Positions 28,428-36,714 of a DNA stretch of 64,000 nt are shown one piece after another (within the stretch, counting starts at the first letter, position 1; each line of letters begins with the position of its first letter). Source of the stretch: Candidatus Latescibacterota bacterium (GTDB lineage: Bacteria > Latescibacterota > UBA2968); NCBI GenBank assembly GCA_965208125.1, contig OZ242320.1, positions 1,792,001-1,856,000 on the forward strand. The letters run 5' to 3'. The position numbers and the translations under genes are program-made. The notes beneath the pieces are model-generated. The model ran no database searches, was not told the origin of the DNA, and worked only from the letters and a program-made list of their open reading frames with translations.

Positions 28428-29504
28428 ATGTTTGGAAAGCACCTGCAACTCGCCCGAAAAAAGGCCGGTTATTCACTACGCGGCCTCTCCCACGCGCTGG
28501 ATGGCGAAGTAACCGCACAAGCCATTGGAAAATATGAACGCGGCGAAATGATGCCGCGCTCCAGCGTACTAATTCATCTCGCCAGCGTCCTCGGCGTTTC
28601 ACTGGAATATCTGCTCAGCGAACGCGTCGAAGTCCTCAAAATCCCCGAATTTCGCAAGCACTCGGGCATGAGTGTCGGTGATCGAGCACGCGTTGAGGCG
28701 GCAGTCATTGACGGCCTGCAACGCTACTTTGCCATTGAAGAGATACTCTCAGGCGATAGCGGGACCTCGAAGGCTCCCCGATTGGGCAACCGGTGGCTGG
28801 GACACGAGGATGACGGCGAAGTTCTGGCACAGAACCTGCGCCAAAAATGGCAACTGGGGATTGATCCCATCCTCAATATGACCGCTCTACTGGAAGACCG
28901 AGGCATCAAAGTACTCATGATGCCCCTGCCCGACCGCGTCTCGGGACTCACCTGTTTTGTGTACAGGTCGCAGCAAAAGACCAGGATACCGGTTATTGTT
29001 ATAAACGCGGAGGCCTCGCAGGAAAGGCGGCGGTTTACCCTCGCCCACGAACTTGCACACCAGCTAATCGATAAGACCTCGCCCGTTGATCGTGAAAAGG
29101 CGTCAGACATCTTCGCAGGAGCTTTCCTGATGCCTAAAGATCATCTGATGCGCGCAATAGGTGAACAGAGAAAGGCTCTCTGTTATCGGGAATTGATCCA
29201 GATCAAGCGCATATACCGGGTAAGCGCGGCAACGCTTTTGATCCGCCTCAGACAGGTCGGCATCATCAATCAATCGACTTTCGACTATGCGTTCCGGACG
29301 TATGCACGCGGCTGGCGGAAGAATGAACCGGAATCGCTAAAAGGAAATCACGAAGTGCCGCAGCGATTTGAGAGGCTTTGTTATTGGGCACTTGCCGAGA
29401 AACTCATCGATCCAGGAAAAGCTTGCGAGTTGTTGCAAAAGCCATTGGCAGACATCGAAAAAGGGCTGAGAGGACCTGCCAGTGGCAATTCGGACAGTAG
29501 TTAG
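28428..29504 (+). CDS. XRE HTH - ImmA/IrrE Zn-metallopeptidase fusion
   Basis: N-terminal HTH; RRRFTLAHELAH; A..FAGAFLMP. Confidence 0.9.
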   Translation: MFGKHLQLARKKAGYSLRGLSHALDGEVTAQAIGKYERGEMMPRSSVLIHLASVLGVSLEYLLSERVEVLKIPEFRKHSGMSVGDRARVEAAVIDGLQRYFAIEEILSGDSGTSKAPRLGNRWLGHEDDGEVLAQNLRQKWQLGIDPILNMTALLEDRGIKVLMMPLPDRVSGLTCFVYRSQQKTRIPVIVINAEASQERRRFTLAHELAHQLIDKTSPVDREKASDIFAGAFLMPKDHLMRAIGEQRKALCYRELIQIKRIYRVSAATLLIRLRQVGIINQSTFDYAFRTYARGWRKNEPESLKGNHEVPQRFERLCYWALAEKLIDPGKACELLQKPLADIEKGLRGPASGNSDSS

Positions 29505-29904: not shown

Positions 29905-30095
29905 CGGTTCTCTCACCTGGGATCTCCTCCTGCATCCCACTATCCCCTTCATATGAATGACATTCTCCCTTCATACCCTTCTGATAGATGTGGTACACGT
30001 TGTGCAAACTCCCCCTCAGCATTCGACATTTGACACCAGAGACATTTAGAATTTTGTAGAATCAATATGCGTCGCGTTTTCCCCAGATCTATTTC

Positions 30096-32306
30096 TCATC
30101 GCCAGGGAATAGCGGCGAAAAAACTTTTGATCTCCTCGTAACGGTCCAATCTTTTTTCGAGGGTCTCGATATCTTCTTGACTACCTCCAAAAGCATCTTT
30201 CATATCTTTGATATGGTTTTCGTACTGCGTATTAAGGTTCTCTGCTCCTTTCTGGAAAGCAACCAGTGTTTCCTTCCAGAAAGTATCGATATTTTTCTCT
30301 ATCATTGAAAGGACATCTTCTTTTTTAAATACATCCTTGATTTTTTTTGCTAAACGTCGTTCCCAACTGTCTCCAAAGAGCCAGGAAGACAAGGCACCCA
30401 TCGCAAGAGCTACCCCGATCGCCAGAGTAATTGGTCCTCCTAAGGCCGAGACAAGAGCAGCTGCCCCTCCCGCGCCTCCCGCGAAAGAGAATCCCAAAAC
30501 GGACAGCACACGAACCATTTTTGCGACTATTATATATCCACCCAGATTTCCCAATGTGGATGCCCAAGCACCAAGAGCACCAAGGGTACCAAGCCCTGCT
30601 AATCCTCCGAGAAATGCTCCTTTCGCATCGAATGGTATAGAAAATTCTTCTGCACCTTGATCCTGTGGTACTTCTAACAATCTGTCTTTTCTTATACTTC
30701 GCATGAAACCATCAATGAGATCTTTAATCTCATCAAGCAAATCACGCCGACAATCCTCTGTCCGGGATTGAATTTCTGCAAGGACATAAGCAGCGGCATG
30801 CGTCTCCGCTTTTTTTTTATCCCCTTCATAGCGATCTTTAATCATCTGTTCTATCTTCTCGACCGCAGTTTCGTCCTCAAAAATTTCTCGGAATTTTTCC
30901 AGTTCTCGGTATTTCAATTTGTTGATTTCCCCTTCTATACGCTCTACCTCGCGTTTATGTCCCTTCTTTCTATCAGGCTCCCCTTTTTTTAACCTTTCAT
31001 AGTGTTTTTTTGCTTTTTCCTTCTCATCCCTAATTTTTGCAAACTTGTCGATTTCCTGTGCGTAAAAGTCCTTTCCTTCATCCTTAAATTTGAGAATTTC
31101 TTCGTTTACGCTTTCTTTTTTAATCGGCGGTATTTTCTTCCCAAGTAAGCGTTTTAGATCCTGTTCCAGCCTTTTTCGTCTTCCTCGTATTTCCTGGTAA
31201 AAACTGAAAAAGCGAGCATGGACATGCTCATGCGTAATTGACTGTTCACGACTGCTTAGTTTGGGAAGAAGGTTGTCCTCAAAGTGTTTATAGAAATCCT
31301 CACTACCTCCTCTCAATATCTGATTCTCAAGTTGTTTTTTTGGGATTCCAGGATGAGCGTGCGTCCCAATGATGAAAAGATTGCCGAGCTTAGGAAAGTC
31401 ATCATAAATTTCTTCATACCGTGGAAGACCACGTAGCAAATCAGCGAGGTGTGTCAGATCTCCACCACCGAGAAATCCTTGAACGGGACAAAGATATAAT
31501 AAAATAGCTCCACGACTGCTTAACTGGCCAATAAGAGACTCATCTGTTATCCTGTCACCGTACCCAGGCAAATCTACCAGGACGCACGAGTGGAGTAACG
31601 GAGCATCGACAAAAGCCAAGACAGCGCCTTCTCCGCTGTTATCATTCCGACCTTTTAGAGTGGCATGCTTTTTAAGCGTATCCCAACTTCCAGCGAGGAT
31701 TCGATTGTCTGTACAATAATCTTCGACAGCCCATTTTTCATGCTCTGTAAAACCGGGTCCCATAAGCCACAAGTCTTCCTTGAACCATGAAGGACGATCA
31801 GAGATATGACGAATAAAGGTGGGGTACCTGGTGACCGGACGGTAGCCCGTTGGAAGCCGGCCTTCTCCCAAATAGAAATTACAGAAATGGGACTTGCCAG
31901 CATCAAAACGTCCGGTGAGTACGACCCAGGGTTTTTCTTTAAGAACAGTAACACGGTCTCGAAACTGTTCAATAGTTAGGCCAAATGACTCATCACCTAA
32001 CTCTTCTTTAGAATTAAGAAATCGGTCAATGTACTGTTCAAGTAGCTCCAAATCTTCTGTGAGGGATCCATATAAACGGTCGTCAAAGTCAAAGATAGTT
32101 TCTTTTTGGGCTGGTGGGAGGTCTGGATCTGGTACAAGATCGTCAATTGAGCATCCTATGGTATAAGCCCATTGTTTCAATAGATCAATAGGGATATCTC
32201 CGCTGGCCTCATATCTGGATACCCGGGCCTGAGTAATCTTAAGAGCTTCCGCAAGGTCCTTTTGCTTTAATCCCGATTCTTTTCGAAGGTCTGCTAGATT
32301 CTTCAT
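30096..32306 (-). CDS. XRE HTH fused to dynamin-like GTPase
   Basis: HTH (QKDLAEAL…QARVSRYE), G1 GRFDAGKS, G3 DLPG, G4-like THAH, coiled coil, Gly-rich hydrophobic hairpin. Confidence 0.8.
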   Translation of the reverse strand: MKNLADLRKESGLKQKDLAEALKITQARVSRYEASGDIPIDLLKQWAYTIGCSIDDLVPDPDLPPAQKETIFDFDDRLYGSLTEDLELLEQYIDRFLNSKEELGDESFGLTIEQFRDRVTVLKEKPWVVLTGRFDAGKSHFCNFYLGEGRLPTGYRPVTRYPTFIRHISDRPSWFKEDLWLMGPGFTEHEKWAVEDYCTDNRILAGSWDTLKKHATLKGRNDNSGEGAVLAFVDAPLLHSCVLVDLPGYGDRITDESLIGQLSSRGAILLYLCPVQGFLGGGDLTHLADLLRGLPRYEEIYDDFPKLGNLFIIGTHAHPGIPKKQLENQILRGGSEDFYKHFEDNLLPKLSSREQSITHEHVHARFFSFYQEIRGRRKRLEQDLKRLLGKKIPPIKKESVNEEILKFKDEGKDFYAQEIDKFAKIRDEKEKAKKHYERLKKGEPDRKKGHKREVERIEGEINKLKYRELEKFREIFEDETAVEKIEQMIKDRYEGDKKKAETHAAAYVLAEIQSRTEDCRRDLLDEIKDLIDGFMRSIRKDRLLEVPQDQGAEEFSIPFDAKGAFLGGLAGLGTLGALGAWASTLGNLGGYIIVAKMVRVLSVLGFSFAGGAGGAAALVSALGGPITLAIGVALAMGALSSWLFGDSWERRLAKKIKDVFKKEDVLSMIEKNIDTFWKETLVAFQKGAENLNTQYENHIKDMKDAFGGSQEDIETLEKRLDRYEEIKSFFAAIPWR

Positions 32307-32365
32307 AATTAAGTCTCCTTTTGGGTACGTTGTACCATCTGCGAAGATGGCACAACGTGGAAAAA

Positions 32366-32674
32366 TTACCTACCAGCCTTTCGACCACCACCGCCAGCTC
32401 TTTGGTTCAGTGGAGGATTATGCTGGACAATCTTGGCTTGCTCATGGACACGGCGAGTTGTAGATGTACTTCTGCCATCCGCTCTCTGCCAGGCAAAAGT
32501 ATGGGTCTCACGCGGTGCCAGGCCCGTACGACGATGTTCTCCAATTCTGCGATTCAGGTTCACAGTTTCCCCAAAGTAATCCACCTTGCCACTTTCATTA
32601 TTGATGGCACGATAGAATCCGGGGGCATTGGGCGGCTCTTGCGTAGAGGGCCGCCCGCGTTTAGTAATGGCCAT
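32366..32674 (-). CDS. Small standalone GIY-YIG-like protein
   Basis: AGGAGG RBS; PGFY…YFGET.NLNRRIGEH…HE…NPPLN. Confidence 0.75.
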   Translation of the reverse strand: MAITKRGRPSTQEPPNAPGFYRAINNESGKVDYFGETVNLNRRIGEHRRTGLAPRETHTFAWQRADGRSTSTTRRVHEQAKIVQHNPPLNQRAGGGGRKAGR

Positions 32675-32705
32675 AAAAGACCTCCTAAAAAAGGATTGAG
32701 ATTGT

Positions 32706-32740
32706 GGGCTACCAGTTGCTCCGGTAGCCCGTGACTTACC
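32706..32740 (-). repeat. Conserved hairpin after peptide B
   Basis: Minus strand GGUAAGUCAC-GGGCUACCGG-AGCAA-CUGGUAGCCC. Confidence 0.8.
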
Positions 32741-32745
32741 GGCAG

Positions 32746-32835
32746 TTATACCGCCATCGCGGCGAAGTGCTGTCCGACGGTGATCAAAACCGTAGCGATG
32801 ACGCTGTACAACACTTTGAGCAGTAGTGCGTGCAT
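32746..32835 (-). CDS. Small hydrophobic peptide B (29 aa) MHALLLKVLYSVIATVLITVGQHFAAMAV
   Basis: AAGGAG RBS; 15/29 identical and ungapped to peptide A. Confidence 0.75.
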   Translation of the reverse strand: MHALLLKVLYSVIATVLITVGQHFAAMAV

Positions 32836-32897
32836 AGCTTTCTCCTTTTGGTTACGCTGGCTGTCCGAACAGGAAGAGCCAGAAAAGATGAGAGTTA

Positions 32898-32933
32898 TGG
32901 GCTACCAGTTTCTCCAGTAGCCCACGACTTACC
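32898..32933 (-). repeat. Conserved hairpin after peptide A
   Basis: Minus strand GGUAAGUCG-UGGGCUACUGG-AGAAA-CUGGUAGCCCA. Confidence 0.8.
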
Positions 32934-32934
32934 G

Positions 32935-33039
32935 CTACTGTGGCGGACGTCTATCTGCCATCGACGCGACGTGCTGCCCTATGGCCACTATGGCCGCGGC
33001 GAGAGCACTATACAGCACTTTTTTCCCAAGTGCTTTCAT
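32935..33039 (-). CDS. Small amphipathic peptide A (34 aa) MKALGKKVLYSALAAAIVAIGQHVASMADRRPPQ
   Basis: AAGGAGG RBS; homologous to peptide B. Confidence 0.75.
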   Translation of the reverse strand: MKALGKKVLYSALAAAIVAIGQHVASMADRRPPQ

Positions 33040-33103
33040 GATTTTCCTCCTTTGCTATGCCCGCTACGCATTTCTGCGGGAAAAATGAAATGTGATTTCC
33101 CAT

Positions 33104-33132
33104 AAAGTAATATTGAAATTTTATTTTGTCAA
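33104..33132 (-). promoter_or_regulatory. sigma70-type promoter for the peptide/GIY-YIG/dynamin operon
   Basis: TTGACA-17 bp-TACTTT on minus strand with AT-rich upstream tract. Confidence 0.65.
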
Positions 33133-33431
33133 GTTATTTTTATTAATAATTGAGAAAAATTTATTGATTTAATCCTTAAAGCATAATCCCTACTTAATAT
33201 AAACGATAATTGATGGTTAATCGGATTACGGTGCGCCCACAATGTATTTTCCAATCACAAAACCCCGCGTTATTCGTTTCAGAGGGCGCACTCTTATTGA
33301 TGTTATGCCCGCCCGCAGGTCTTCAAAAGATATGCGACACCCCAAAGCGCAAGGATGTCTAAATGTCTGCGGGCGGTCAGCACTGGTGTTGGCCGTTGGG
33401 TTCAGGCTGTTGCTTCTTTCAGGAGGTTGTC

Positions 33432-34251
33432 ATGTCAGGTTCGTCGTTTGTGGTTCCGTCGGCTGTGTTCTCGGGGTTGTCCGCTCTGTCTGGCCCCGTG
33501 GCTGTTGTGGGGTCGCGTTCTTTGCCGTCTGCGGCGTTGCTTTCGGTTGCTCGGTTCGGTCGTTGGGTGGGTCGTTCTCGTCCGCTCTGGTCCGGTGGGG
33601 CGTTGGGCGTTGATAGCGCTGCGTCTGCTGGTGCTCTGGCGCAGGGTGGTCAGGTGTGCTGGTGGTTGCCGGCTGGGTTTGGCGAGTTGGCCGCTGGGTC
33701 TTCGTCGCCTGTTGTTCGTGGCCCGGGTGGGGTCTTTCCCGTCTCGGCGCCCCGTCAGTTGGCTCGTTCTGTTCGGTGTGTTGCCTGGTCGGGTGGGCCG
33801 TCTTCCGCTTCTGTGCCTTTCAGCGAGCGGTTGTTCCAGCGGTCGGTTTCGCTTCTTCTCTCGCTTCGTGGTGCGGGTGGTGGGTCTGTGGTCTGCTTCA
33901 TCTCTCAGGTTGCTCTTTCGGCTCGGCGTGGTGGGTCCTGGTTCACTGTCCGTCGTGCTTTGGGGCTTGGGTTCCGGCCTGGCCGCGTCGTTGTTCGTTG
34001 TGCTCGTTGGGCCTGGCGGTTTTTCGCTTTTGTCGCCGGGGGCTGTGGTGTCCGCCTTTTTCGCTCCCTCTTCTTCTCAGCAGTCTCTCTTCACTCCCGA
34101 GCAGCTCGTGGGTGCGCGTCCGTCTCTCTTCCCGCCGGTGTCTCCTTCTGGGTCCCGTCGCGATCCGCATGGCGAGCGGTTTGATTCTCAGTCCGTGTGT
34201 GGGCCGTTGTCTCAGGCGTTCTGGCTCGGTTTCCGGTTCAGGTCTGGTTAG
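33432..34251 (+). CDS. Adenine-depleted DprA/SLOG-like protein, apparent +1 frameshift near 33985
   Basis: AGGAGGT RBS; VAVVGSR, SGGALGVD, RLFQRS, GSWFTVRRA; ~27 A in 820 nt. Confidence 0.65.
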
Positions 34252-34418
34252 GGTTTCTGGCCCTTCGGCCGCGGTCCATGTGTCGCATGTATGGCGATAA
34301 TTATGCGTGCATTTGTCGCCTTCTATACGTCAGTTGTCCACAAAAAGATACCGCGCTCCCGATAGCAGGAACGCGGCACTGAGTTGTTTTAGGGAATTAT
34401 ATCCAATGTTAGCCAATA

Positions 34419-35230
34419 TCAAAACTGTGATTCTTTTGCTTTTTTGGTTCTTTCAGCTTCCCTTTTTTCGCTTTGGGAACTCCTATGCTGCCAATAGCCT
34501 TGAAAACGGTATTCAAGTTCTAATTGGTTGAAATCTCCAACTCTTTTAAAGGAGAGGCGAATTTCTTTAAGTTGCCATTTGTTATCCGCATCAAAATCGG
34601 ATTTTCTCCAAAGTTCACTATCGGAATCTTGCGCCACGCGTACCTGTTCAGCCTGATCAAAAATAAACATACCCGGTATCTTCAGCCCGAACCCCTCTTT
34701 ACCATACTTCCTTCTTATACTAATCGTAAGAATTAAGTTTGCCTGGTCTATTGCCTGCTCAAGCTGTCGCAGAGTCGGGAAAAGGATTTCCCTCCTACTA
34801 CTGCTTACTGTTGGAGCGGCATCCCTGCCGCGATCACCCAATTTCGAGAACCTAATGCAAGATTTCTATATCTGATTAGTATTAGAATGTCGCGTATTTC
34901 CCAATACTTCAATCTTGGGTTATCAATCTCCCATTCCAAACGGACGGCCAGAAGTCCACTCTTTGGCAAAATTTCAAAATTTATGTACTTGGCATCCTTT
35001 GGCATTTTGGGATTTCGGACATAAAAAGATTCAAGCCCGAATACCGTCGTGCCCCCGAGGTTCTCAATAGTGCCAAAGTCCAAAGCGCGAATTTCATCAA
35101 TAGTCATCCCCTTCTTGAGTCCAAAAATATCTGCGTCTCTGGCGTCGCCATACGCCAGAGTGAACACACAGACCACCCAAATTGAAATTGTCCACGCAAG
35201 ACCTATACGTTTCAACAGTGAAACCTTCAT
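34419..35230 (-). pseudogene. Exported protein gene split by a 164-bp insertion
   Basis: Removing 34718-34881 joins the two ORFs in frame (…EIRDILI-RRKYGKEG…); signal peptide; FGLKKGMT. Confidence 0.7.
34718..34881. mobile_element. MITE-like insertion carrying two REP-like palindromes
   Basis: Ends TACTAATC/GATTAGTA; internal palindromes at 34774-34798 and 34810-34834. Confidence 0.7.
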
Positions 35231-35556
35231 AGCTATTTCTCTTATTCGCATAGCGATTCCAACCACGTCCATGCCAAGCATCTTTCCAGATAGACGGTAT
35301 CAAATGTGGCATTTGATGGCAGTGCGCTTGGTCGGGTAAGCCACACCTTGCAGTGTGCCGTGTTCTATTCGATCACCTCAACCGCCATTTCGATCATTGC
35401 GTCACCTGTTGGCATCCTCCACCACAGTCCCACCGTCAGCCCTTGGGCATTTTTCTGTTCGGTTGCCTTGATATACCAGTCCGAAGGCGTCAAGGCGACG
35501 TGGGCGGAATTACCCGCTTTATTGCACTTTTTGGGGATAACCCGCCTGGAGCTTCA

Positions 35557-36714
35557 TCAACTTGTCCAACCGGCAGGATCACTATCGGATAGACAGGAGA
35601 AAAACTGGACATGTCCGCAGTGGTCACAGACAAAGACCTTAAAGGATTGGCTTCCCTTTGGTTCCAACCCAAAATTGCTTATAGCAATGGGATTTCCTCT
35701 ATTTATAGCCAGTTTGTAAATCCCGAAACCACAAACTCTGCATGGGCGACGTACAGTATCGCTCATTCGATCACCGCCAAGTTTCAAGACTTCGAGGAGG
35801 ACGTCAATCTCGTAGAGCAAGATCCTCGCATTTTTGAGGCAATCCCGTTCACGTTCAACAATGCATTTATCAAGCAAACCATTGAGAAGTCTCATTTCAG
35901 GTCTGCCGGGGAACATTGCCTCAATATTGTTCCCTGGTTCGCGGTGATACCAAAGATGTAAAAACGGCTTGCCCGATACTATTGCCCAGATGACTTTACC
36001 CAATGAAAATACATCGAAACTGGGGTTTATATCTTCTATGCGCCTGCGCATAGCCCATGGTGGCATCCAGTCGGTACTTCCCACGTTTTCAAGGGTGCCA
36101 CTGATTCTCGTATGTCCTGGATCCTCAAAGAACACGAGACCAAAGTCGCCGAGTACCAATTGTTCGTTCTCATCTACAAAAATGTTCTCTGGCTTGATGT
36201 CGCGATGAACGATTTGCTTTTCGTGTAAGGAGGCAACCCCTTCAACGATCGGTCGAATTGCAGTGAGGGCATGTTTTACTTGTCCGGTGTACCGATCAGA
36301 CCTGTTTTTCAAGGTTCCTTTTGGATAGTATTTCGAGACGAACCACTTTTCCTCAAAGTTGAGATCCACAACCTCCAGAAGGTTTGGGTGGTCGGCTTGC
36401 TGCATAGCTTCCAACTCGCGTTTTAGCCGTTCCTCTGCATCATCGAAATTCTGGGCTTCATCCGGCGAGTGTAGAATTTTGAGCGCACCGTGATTCACAG
36501 GGTTTTCAGCCTGCACAATTTCGGAAATGATTTTTCGCATCAACTTCATTGCCTTCGGGGCATTGTATAGTTGACCGGCCTGTTGGACTGCCTCAAATAA
36601 AGTATCCGCAAGGTCGTCCAAAGGGACCTCATGCTTATCCAAGACACGGATGACCTTCCCCTGTCCACCTTCACCAATCTCTTCAATTTCCTCCCAACGA
36701 TTTTCGTATTTCAT
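35557..36714 (-). CDS. Hanks-type Ser/Thr kinase with C-terminal zinc ribbon
   Basis: GEGGQG, ALK, HRDIKPEN, DFG, DVFSLG; CRVC…CDHC. Confidence 0.9.
   Translation of the reverse strand: MKYENRWEEIEEIGEGGQGKVIRVLDKHEVPLDDLADTLFEAVQQAGQLYNAPKAMKLMRKIISEIVQAENPVNHGALKILHSPDEAQNFDDAEERLKRELEAMQQADHPNLLEVVDLNFEEKWFVSKYYPKGTLKNRSDRYTGQVKHALTAIRPIVEGVASLHEKQIVHRDIKPENIFVDENEQLVLGDFGLVFFEDPGHTRISGTLENVGSTDWMPPWAMRRRIEDINPSFDVFSLGKVIWAIVSGKPFLHLWYHREPGNNIEAMFPGRPEMRLLNGLLDKCIVERERDCLKNARILLYEIDVLLEVLKLGGDRMSDTVRRPCRVCGFGIYKLAINRGNPIAISNFGLEPKGSQSFKVFVCDHCGHVQFFSCLSDSDPAGWTS

Follow-up and report, generated by a model that had tools for sequence, protein, structure and literature searches.

Tandem genes for two putative small membrane peptides, each followed by a conserved hairpin element, precede a GIY-YIG nuclease gene in a Latescibacterota genome

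In the puf operon of Rhodobacter, the cistrons for the light-harvesting peptides, pufB and pufA, are followed by a stem-loop, and decay-barrier hairpins of this type raise the yield of small products relative to enzymes. Here, we analysed a window of 64,000 nucleotides (nt) from a Candidatus Latescibacterota bacterium (assembly GCA_965208125.1, contig OZ242320.1, positions 1,792,001 to 1,856,000), in which two homologous micro open reading frames (ORFs), pep1 and pep2, each followed by its own copy of a hairpin element, precede the genes for a stand-alone GIY-YIG domain protein and a helix-turn-helix (HTH) dynamin-like protein on the minus strand. The locus resembles the puf-type layout in that genes for small, putatively membrane-bound peptides lie at the 5' end of a predicted operon and a stable hairpin without an adjacent U-tract stands before the distal genes. 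Hairpins of -19 to -21 kcal/mol are located between the proximal small cistrons and the distal ones, and the peptide and GIY-YIG genes probably share a single transcript. Unlike in the puf operon, each of the two paralogous cistrons has its own copy of the element with a fixed GGUAAGUC flank, the peptides are about 30 amino acids (aa) long and belong to an unnamed family, and the distal genes encode a nuclease and a dynamin-like GTPase. By analogy, the arrangement would work most like the intercistronic decay-barrier hairpins of the puf type. We propose, with moderate confidence, that the membrane peptides are co-transcribed with the nuclease and that the hairpins serve as decay-barrier or processing elements on the mRNA. 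The features of the locus are the following.

33104..33132, minus strand: promoter-like site, with TTGACA at 33132..33127, a 17-nt spacer and TACTTT at 33109..33104, in an AT-rich stretch; read by eye.
Between the promoter-like site and pep1, minus strand: leader of about 57 nt.
33039..32935, minus strand: pep1, micro-ORF of 34 aa, GGAGG about 7 nt upstream; recorded as called protein P0021.
32895..32934, minus strand: element 1, consisting of GGUAAGUC at 32933..32926 and a hairpin at 32923..32899; a U-rich run follows about 10 nt downstream.
32835..32746, minus strand: pep2, micro-ORF of 29 aa, GGAG about 7 nt upstream; recorded as P0022.
32702..32741, minus strand: element 2, consisting of GGUAAGUC at 32740..32733 and a hairpin at 32730..32706; UUUUUU at 32692..32687 follows, then the AGGAGG of the GIY-YIG gene.
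32674..32366, minus strand: stand-alone GIY-YIG domain protein of 102 aa (Pfam GIY-YIG, E 5.5e-5).
32330..32355, strand not assigned: 26-bp palindrome immediately before the ribosome-binding site of the dynamin-like gene.
32306..30096, minus strand: HTH-dynamin-like protein of 736 aa (Pfam Dynamin_N, E 1.6e-10; HTH_3, E 2.6e-9).

The initial annotation of this DNA had described tandem units of about 200 bp, and this organisation was confirmed by a repeat spacing of 193 nt with one micro-ORF and one hairpin per unit. Similarity of the whole units extends from about 25 nt before the ribosome-binding site to the U-rich run about 10 nt past the hairpin. The two ORFs, with the sequences quoted at the outset, do align without internal gaps, although the 15 identical columns fall on 28 shared positions (52% identity) rather than on 29. 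Of the 28 aligned codon pairs, 13 encode different residues and 15 the same residue, the latter with identical codons in 7 cases and with synonymous ones in 8. Differences between pep1 and pep2 are distributed 12/4/14 over codon positions 1/2/3, and the Nei-Gojobori estimates of non-synonymous (dN 0.35) and synonymous divergence (dS 1.21) give a dN/dS of ~0.29, with synonymous sites saturated. When 30 differences were placed randomly, at least 15 identical residues and no stop codon were obtained in 0.9% of 20,000 trials (P ~0.009). The earlier claim that both ORFs are under coding selection is borne out by the dN/dS ratio, the codon-position pattern and this P-value. The identity of the coding sequences at the DNA level is 54/84 (64%), and the Shine-Dalgarno sites are strong in both ORFs (GGAG(G) about 7 nt upstream). 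We regard it as very probable that both ORFs are genuine genes and that they belong to a new, rare family of small proteins.

A profile built from the two peptides was compared with 1,835,955,588 proteins and gave three matches at E <= 0.001, comprising the two peptides of the window and P0023, a protein of 30 aa (E 7.6e-8, 48 bits). P0023 is the sole match outside the window and represents a third family member, found outside this genome. Across the three peptides, 11 columns are invariant, with K-x-L-Y towards the N-terminus and G-Q-H-x-A-x-M towards the C-terminus among them. P0023 is recorded on one ENA contig of 36,547 nt, and the longest contig of P0004, a GIY-YIG protein 75% identical to that of the window, is also 36,547 nt long. 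This suggests, but does not prove, that P0023 and P0004 are neighbours.

Beyond these three members, searches for relatives of the peptides were negative. No sequence similarity to any named family was detected for the window peptides (0 families each in Pfam, PADLOC, NCBIfam and PHROGs). In 31 genomes of the same taxonomic family, the best foreign match to the peptide profile had an E of 0.0098 and carries two in-frame TGA codons, and the profile was found in 0/52 other genomes of the order and 0/167 other genomes of the phylum. Back-translated peptide patterns matched 57 species-genome stretches and 44 viral-contig stretches, of which 0 were confirmed as homologues; the species-genome, viral and metagenome collections may omit records very near the window's genome. 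No peptide homologue was present in 48 metagenome loci of GIY-YIG relatives (best E 0.63), the best score of a peptide search in the ESM Atlas (0.84) was under the level counted as more than a lead, and a search for near-identical DNA in plasmids and E. coli genomes gave no match.

The best window of each of the three peptides (34, 29 and 30 aa) contains 11 hydrophobic residues out of 15. Their best 19-residue Kyte-Doolittle means range from 1.58 to 2.14, the N-termini are positively charged, and two of the three have a polar C-terminal tail. For pep1, a single hydrophobic helix was predicted behind a lysine-rich N-terminus. The products are presumably small membrane peptides with a single helix that inserts into the membrane. 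Their layout is also signal-like, with a basic N-terminus, a hydrophobic core and a small-x-small motif near the end that is followed by 0-6 residues. A cleavable signal peptide or a truncated remnant of a longer secreted protein was rejected as an explanation, since the matches to the profile at E <= 0.001 included no longer protein.

The hairpin element is a direct repeat of 40 nt (32702-32741 and 32895-32934; 35/40 identical, 88%; spacing 193) that holds GGTAAGTC and the hairpin. In element 1, the stop codon is followed by one base, GGUAAGUC, two bases and a 10-bp stem with a 5-nt loop, and element 2 begins five bases past the pep2 stop, which places the hairpins 11 and 15 nt past their respective stops. 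A conserved element and stem behind each stop had been reported initially; both are present, with stems of 10 bp (12 bp with an extension in unit 1) compared to the 10-11 bp claimed, and with 6-7 G-C pairs. The element is better conserved than the ORFs (88% versus 64%), and its edges are sharp, starting right behind the stop codons. In the window's genome (5,747,750 nt), a pattern with up to 3 mismatches, a script and a covariance model (R1; 79.8 bits for element 1 and 85.4 bits for element 2) all found two copies. The same covariance model, run across relatives, matched in 0/150 other genomes of the phylum. Likewise, the hairpin pattern matched 0 stretches each in species genomes, viral contigs and metagenome contigs, none of the 48 metagenome loci of GIY-YIG relatives contained the element, and Rfam gave 0 matches at E <= 1 for 30000-36000 on both strands. 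Palindromes of the REP/BIME type, which occur in tens to hundreds of dispersed copies, are ruled out by the presence of only two copies in 5,747,750 nt.

On the minus strand, the stems fold with -19.3 and -21.5 kcal/mol (z -3.1 and -3.4), and both hairpins are kept in the minimum-energy and centroid folds of a 457-nt RNA that reaches from the presumed start to the GIY-YIG start. It had been argued that the hairpins fold in the mRNA because their mismatches are G-U pairs on the minus strand only. The pair types uphold this: unit 2 has one G-U pair and unit 1 has two, and all three non-Watson-Crick pairs are of this kind. The folding energy, in contrast, does not favour the minus over the plus strand. 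Since the plus strand folds about as well, the strand assignment rests on pair types and position. These favour the coding-strand RNA, because all mismatches are G-U, the one U/C difference between the units leaves its base pair intact, and the element stands directly behind the stop codons. In our view, the hairpin element is a locus-specific, selected feature, for which a role at the RNA level is plausible. Two other RNA-level candidates were discarded. One was a leader-peptide attenuator, as the hairpins are clear of the ribosome-binding site that follows and no competing structure was apparent. The other was long-range pairing of the pep1 region with the GIY-YIG start (inverted repeats I1 and I2), for which we estimate that chance alone would yield about 0.5 matches of 12 nt per 700 nt.

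We then considered whether the hairpins are terminators. Only 2 T occur in the 8 nt after either stem, which confirms the earlier statement that there is no immediate U-tract, and a U-run exists in both units further on, 10-13 nt downstream of the stem. An intrinsic terminator would combine a G+C-rich stem with a U-tract within 0-2 nt, a combination that neither hairpin shows, and neither was reported by a terminator scan. In a crude survey of the genome covering 3,076 long ORFs, 342 had a perfect stem of at least 8 bp within 70 nt past the stop. At least 5 T in the next 8 nt were found for 28% of these 342 post-stop stems versus 1.7% of 116 stems inside genes, and look-alike GGCTAC...GTAGCC stems elsewhere in the genome have T-runs immediately after them. 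Canonical terminators therefore exist in this genome, and the unit hairpins differ from them. The initial annotation favoured processing, stabilisation or partial attenuation, each of which is a putative role.

The promoter-like site at 33104..33132 is the only one seen upstream of the units. It is absent from the output of a consensus scan because its second hexamer matches at 3/6 positions only; the scan named a neighbouring weaker pair (33146..33118) instead. Neither the scan nor reading by eye revealed a promoter-like site between the units or ahead of the GIY-YIG gene, and the sequence scan showed none of its own for unit 2. For this reason, pep2 and the GIY-YIG gene would need read-through of the hairpins. 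The spacer from element 1 to pep2 measures 59 nt, and 71 nt separate the pep2 stop from the GIY-YIG start on the same strand. Judged by this layout, the peptides appear to head an operon and not an isolated locus.

Support for the promoter comes from related genomes. It aligns with TTGACA-17-TATCTT at the syntenic locus of a genome of the same genus (G013). In G000, in G013 and in three genomes from a different family, TTGACA-17-TAnnnT stands ahead of the dynamin-like operon. Sigma-70-like promoters thus seem to be in use in the phylum. In G013, window positions 33126-33353 are matched at 77% and 32019-32407 at 72%, and 56 nt replace window positions 32408-33125, with the GIY-YIG gene reduced to its last codons. 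By eye, the shared part comprises the promoter and the leader to ~33076, then the last GIY-YIG codons and the dynamin-like gene. Because promoter and leader run into the GIY-YIG end and the dynamin-like gene, G013 has the appearance of a deletion derivative, and in it the promoter that heads the window's peptides looks as if it drives the dynamin-like gene. The palindrome at 32330-32355, for which G013 has a similar one in the corresponding position, may serve the dynamin-like protein's own HTH as an operator, or it may be an RNA hairpin.

The GIY-YIG protein matches PF01541 with 23.8 bits, above the cut-off of 22.6, and its profile aligns at positions 15-91, and thus over almost the entire protein, with the N-terminal nuclease domain of UvrC (1yd6_A, E 4.7e-4). 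The Y, Y, R, E and N positions of the GIY-YIG superfamily are present in this alignment. Besides itself, the protein has 19 homologues; P0002-P0006 are 75-85% identical to it. No PADLOC model matched it, and tblastn searches of 50,697 phage and 72,556 plasmid records were negative. Of the 48 metagenome loci of its relatives, 40 had at least 300 nt upstream of the gene, and in 12 of these 40 (L048, L052, L053, L055, L058-L061, L064, L067, L070 and L071) a small hydrophobic Gly/Ala-rich ORF of 55-66 aa with a Shine-Dalgarno sequence lies directly upstream on the same strand. Applied to control positions, the same screen was positive in 0/40 cases for the opposite strand, in 0/34 and 4/34 for the downstream side and in 2/29 for sequence further upstream. 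In two more loci, L049 and L062, an ORF for a membrane-like protein of 123-124 aa is located upstream of the GIY-YIG gene. The likeness to the window lies in the arrangement, in which a gene for a GIY-YIG protein of the same family (~102-112 aa) is directly preceded by one or two small hydrophobic ORFs whose ribosome-binding sites are strong. Unlike pep1 and pep2, however, the glycine-zipper-like metagenome ORFs are 55-66 aa long, Gly/Ala-rich and unalignable with them (best E 0.63); their Pfam Gly-zipper matches are under the curated cut-off, and their hairpins are unrelated in sequence to those of the window. In L055 and L059, a 63-aa ORF with a CxxC...CxxC pattern lies between the small hydrophobic ORF and the GIY-YIG gene. 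A narrow literature search found no paper on a pair of a GIY-YIG protein and a small membrane or glycine-zipper peptide. Given the recurrent upstream ORFs and the hint from P0023 and P0004, a functional tie of small membrane peptides to this mini-nuclease is plausible.

The genes flanking the GIY-YIG gene vary between loci and include the end of a sporulation operon, an AAA ATPase, a NERD protein and an adenine deaminase. Truncated 3' remnants of the gene occur at L007/L009 (G016), L008 (G004) and L006/L079 (G013), and in G016 the remnant has a full copy next to it that shares its downstream flank. Such remnants point to recurrent recombination or turnover at the GIY-YIG gene.

Taken together, the following course of events may be envisaged. 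A tandem duplication of a unit of about 200 nt, comprising 5' leader, ribosome-binding site, ORF and hairpin element, would have given rise to pep1 and pep2. A single sigma-70-like promoter at approximately 33132..33104 would drive the peptides and the GIY-YIG gene, and possibly the HTH-dynamin-like gene too. The element, consisting of GGUAAGUC, the 10-bp hairpin and the U-rich single strand about 10 nt on, would work at the RNA level. Its hairpin would halt 3'-to-5' decay, and the adjacent single strand could offer a target for an endonuclease or a place of weak pausing or termination. With 3'-to-5' decay blocked and a site for cleavage or pausing at hand, the short peptide messages would, according to this proposal, outlast and outnumber the message for the distal enzymes. 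The peptides and the GIY-YIG protein most likely form a two-part module, given that small hydrophobic ORFs are found repeatedly ahead of members of this nuclease family. Co-transcription, membrane insertion, the role of the hairpins and the partnership with the nuclease are inferences.

Several observations weigh against this proposal. The peptide family is known from three members at two loci only. A missing U-tract is not unusual in this genome, since 72% of the strong post-stop hairpins lack one, and the hairpins may possibly be U-tract-independent terminators. On the plus strand, the hairpins fold with -18.4 and -22.2 kcal/mol, energetically about equal to the minus strand. Since the dynamin-like gene may have a promoter or operator of its own at the palindrome (32330-32355), it is uncertain whether co-transcription extends past the GIY-YIG gene. 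As to the partnership with the nuclease, the 12 positive metagenome loci are not independent, as only four sequence types are represented and a single type makes up 8 of the 12. No such upstream ORF is present in 28/40 loci, only two of the four types have a 10-11-bp hairpin behind the small ORF, and GIY-YIG homologues in four other genomes of the same genus are without peptide units.

In the wider neighbourhood, the C-terminal part of the dynamin-like protein matches the PADLOC model LeoBC (E 7e-11), which we take to be part of the Eleos ('Dynamins') defence system, LeoA/LeoBC. The 736-aa protein of the window shares with this system a dynamin-type GTPase domain and the LeoBC-like C-terminal part. 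It differs from LeoBC in matching only profile positions 303-583 of 601 and in carrying an N-terminal HTH. Elsewhere, the genes for homologues of the dynamin-like protein are preceded by other genes or by none, which means that the peptide units do not belong to its operon as a constant component. In L080, L081 and L082 (G142, G141 and G135; another family of the same class), a near-consensus promoter, TTGACA-17-TATATT, and a different ORF of about 100 aa, which takes the position of the GIY-YIG gene, stand before the HTH-dynamin-like gene. Further genes of the window include an HTH and M78 peptidase protein at 28428-29504 on the plus strand (PADLOC RmrA, E 1.2e-47) and a Ser/Thr kinase at 35557-36714 on the minus strand (mad6 and PD-T4-6 models, E 3.2e-39). 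With its RmrA-like, kinase and LeoBC-like dynamin proteins, the neighbourhood is of the defence-island type.

On the other side of the units, a stretch of about 0.9 kb (33400-34290, plus strand) is nearly adenine-free (0-8 A per 100 nt) and therefore has hardly any stop codons in all six frames. One plus-strand frame gave weak DprA/PsyrA-like matches (Pfam E 3.5e-6, PADLOC PsyrA E 1.5e-8). A second adenine-poor copy lies about 99 kb upstream in the same genome, with 94% identity over 766 nt, and these two copies are the only 300-nt segments of the genome with at most 3% of any base. Homologues in G011, G017 and, more distantly, G090 are also adenine-poor. In the metagenome, the element reaches a depth of 70-380 in many variants, mostly with C/G/T interchanges. 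Next to the adenine-poor stretch lies a conserved 120-nt piece (33234-33353), whose adjoining genes differ between copies.

Strain variation was assessed in three DNA runs of one sample that contain the stretch. A contig of 812 nt from this sample matches 32456-33267 exactly, at a depth of 3-5. From a more abundant relative (depth 12.6-60), a contig of 608 nt matches 32609-32740 with 15 differences and one gap and joins 32740 to 33238, skipping 497 nt; homology of at least 85% stops at the outer edge of element 2. This joint has 85% likeness and 30 letters on its shorter side, and such joints are often unreliable because of other organisms or repeats. It gives a weak hint that the peptide segment varies between strains.

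Of the other explanations, the one that survives best assumes that a peptide and the GIY-YIG protein form a selfish or abortive-infection module of two genes, poison and control, with many insertion sites, in which the hairpin sets the ratio of the products. It would account for the small hydrophobic ORFs, of at least four unrelated types besides the window's family, that immediately precede genes of this GIY-YIG family, for the differences in the pair's neighbours from locus to locus, for the truncated GIY-YIG remnants in G004, G013 and G016 and for the position of the window locus among defence-type genes (LeoBC-like, RmrA-like and kinase). On the other hand, 28 of the 40 GIY-YIG loci are without such an ORF, and the nuclease matched neither a PADLOC model nor any of the phage and plasmid records searched. 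We consider this explanation unlikely. Rather more doubtful is a related proposal, namely a hitherto undescribed and widely scattered two-component toxin-antitoxin or abortive-infection module of interchangeable membrane peptides and a stand-alone GIY-YIG protein of about 100 aa, in which the hairpins would, in this lineage, set the stoichiometry via mRNA processing.

Next, the units might be tandem type I toxin genes, encoding membrane-damaging peptides whose mRNA is held by an antisense or trans-acting small RNA and stabilised by the 3' hairpin, as in the tandem loci ibs-sib, ldr-rdl and zorO/zorP. The tandem-repeat screen of Fozo et al. 2010 (PMC2887945) selects peptides of 16-70 aa with at least 10/15 hydrophobic residues and at least 50% repeat identity without internal gaps. 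The pair of the window falls within all of these limits (34 and 29 aa, 11/15 hydrophobic, 52% identity, no internal gaps), in which it resembles the known tandem loci, and the polar C-terminal tail of two of the three peptides would fit as well. An antisense antitoxin, as implied in the initial annotation, found no support, since no promoter-like site was seen on the opposite strand over the units. A sequence scan of 32700-33100 showed neither a promoter-like nor a terminator-like site on the plus strand, even though sigma-70-like promoters seem to be used in the phylum. The hairpins have no T-run on either strand and are therefore not bidirectional terminators, and Rfam gave no match. Moreover, type I loci are usually distant from flanking genes, according to the same paper (PMC2887945). 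In contrast, unit 2 has no promoter-like site of its own and the pep2 stop is only 71 nt from the GIY-YIG gene on the same strand, so that the units, as predicted, do not form separate transcription units. Unlike ibs-sib, ldr-rdl and zorO/zorP, the locus has no predicted antisense or divergent small-RNA gene, and its units are located inside an operon and not in a long intergenic region. A type I toxin locus, which has only the shape of the peptides in its favour, is quite unlikely in our view.

A further explanation would place the function at the DNA level, with the imperfect palindrome and its GGTAAGTC flank as a recombination or cassette-boundary site, the units as small cassettes and the ORFs as incidental or weakly selected. 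The element is indeed far better conserved than the ORFs and has sharp edges right behind the stops, the homology of the related-strain contig ends at the outer edge of element 2 (32740 to 33238), and the region from 33236 onward is a repeated element with different flanking genes for each copy. Yet there are only two copies of the hairpin element in 5.75 Mb and none in the 150 phylum genomes or the species-genome, viral and metagenome collections, family-library scans turned up no recombinase gene in the operon, the ORFs are under purifying selection, and the joint in the related-strain contig rests on the 85% likeness and 30 letters given above, which makes such a site highly unlikely. Ordinary or decaying sequence, that is young, functionless, lineage-specific frames with hairpins as weak U-tract-independent terminators or leftovers, would suit the very narrow spread (peptides in 0/167 other phylum genomes and no confirmed species-genome or viral loci), the loss of the segment in G013 with retention of the dynamin-like gene and the many post-stop hairpins without a U-tract in the genome, but it is the least probable explanation and very hard to reconcile with a dN/dS of ~0.29 at saturated synonymous sites, strong ribosome-binding sites retained in both ORFs, the same 11 columns kept by the third member and an element conserved at 88% next to ORFs at 64%.

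The reach of co-transcribed membrane peptides with decay-barrier or processing hairpins, as proposed here, is limited because the family is rare. Nevertheless, proteins of fewer than 50 residues are routinely missed, and this locus offers a clean case, in which two paralogues show selection at the codon level, one more member exists elsewhere and an RNA element is dedicated to the genes. Should the pairing of peptide and nuclease be functional, it would constitute a new small module, perhaps for defence or addiction, with occurrences in metagenomes of gut and marine origin. Were the hairpins to act as decay barriers, they would represent a control of stoichiometry inside an operon in a phylum without cultured members or RNA biology.

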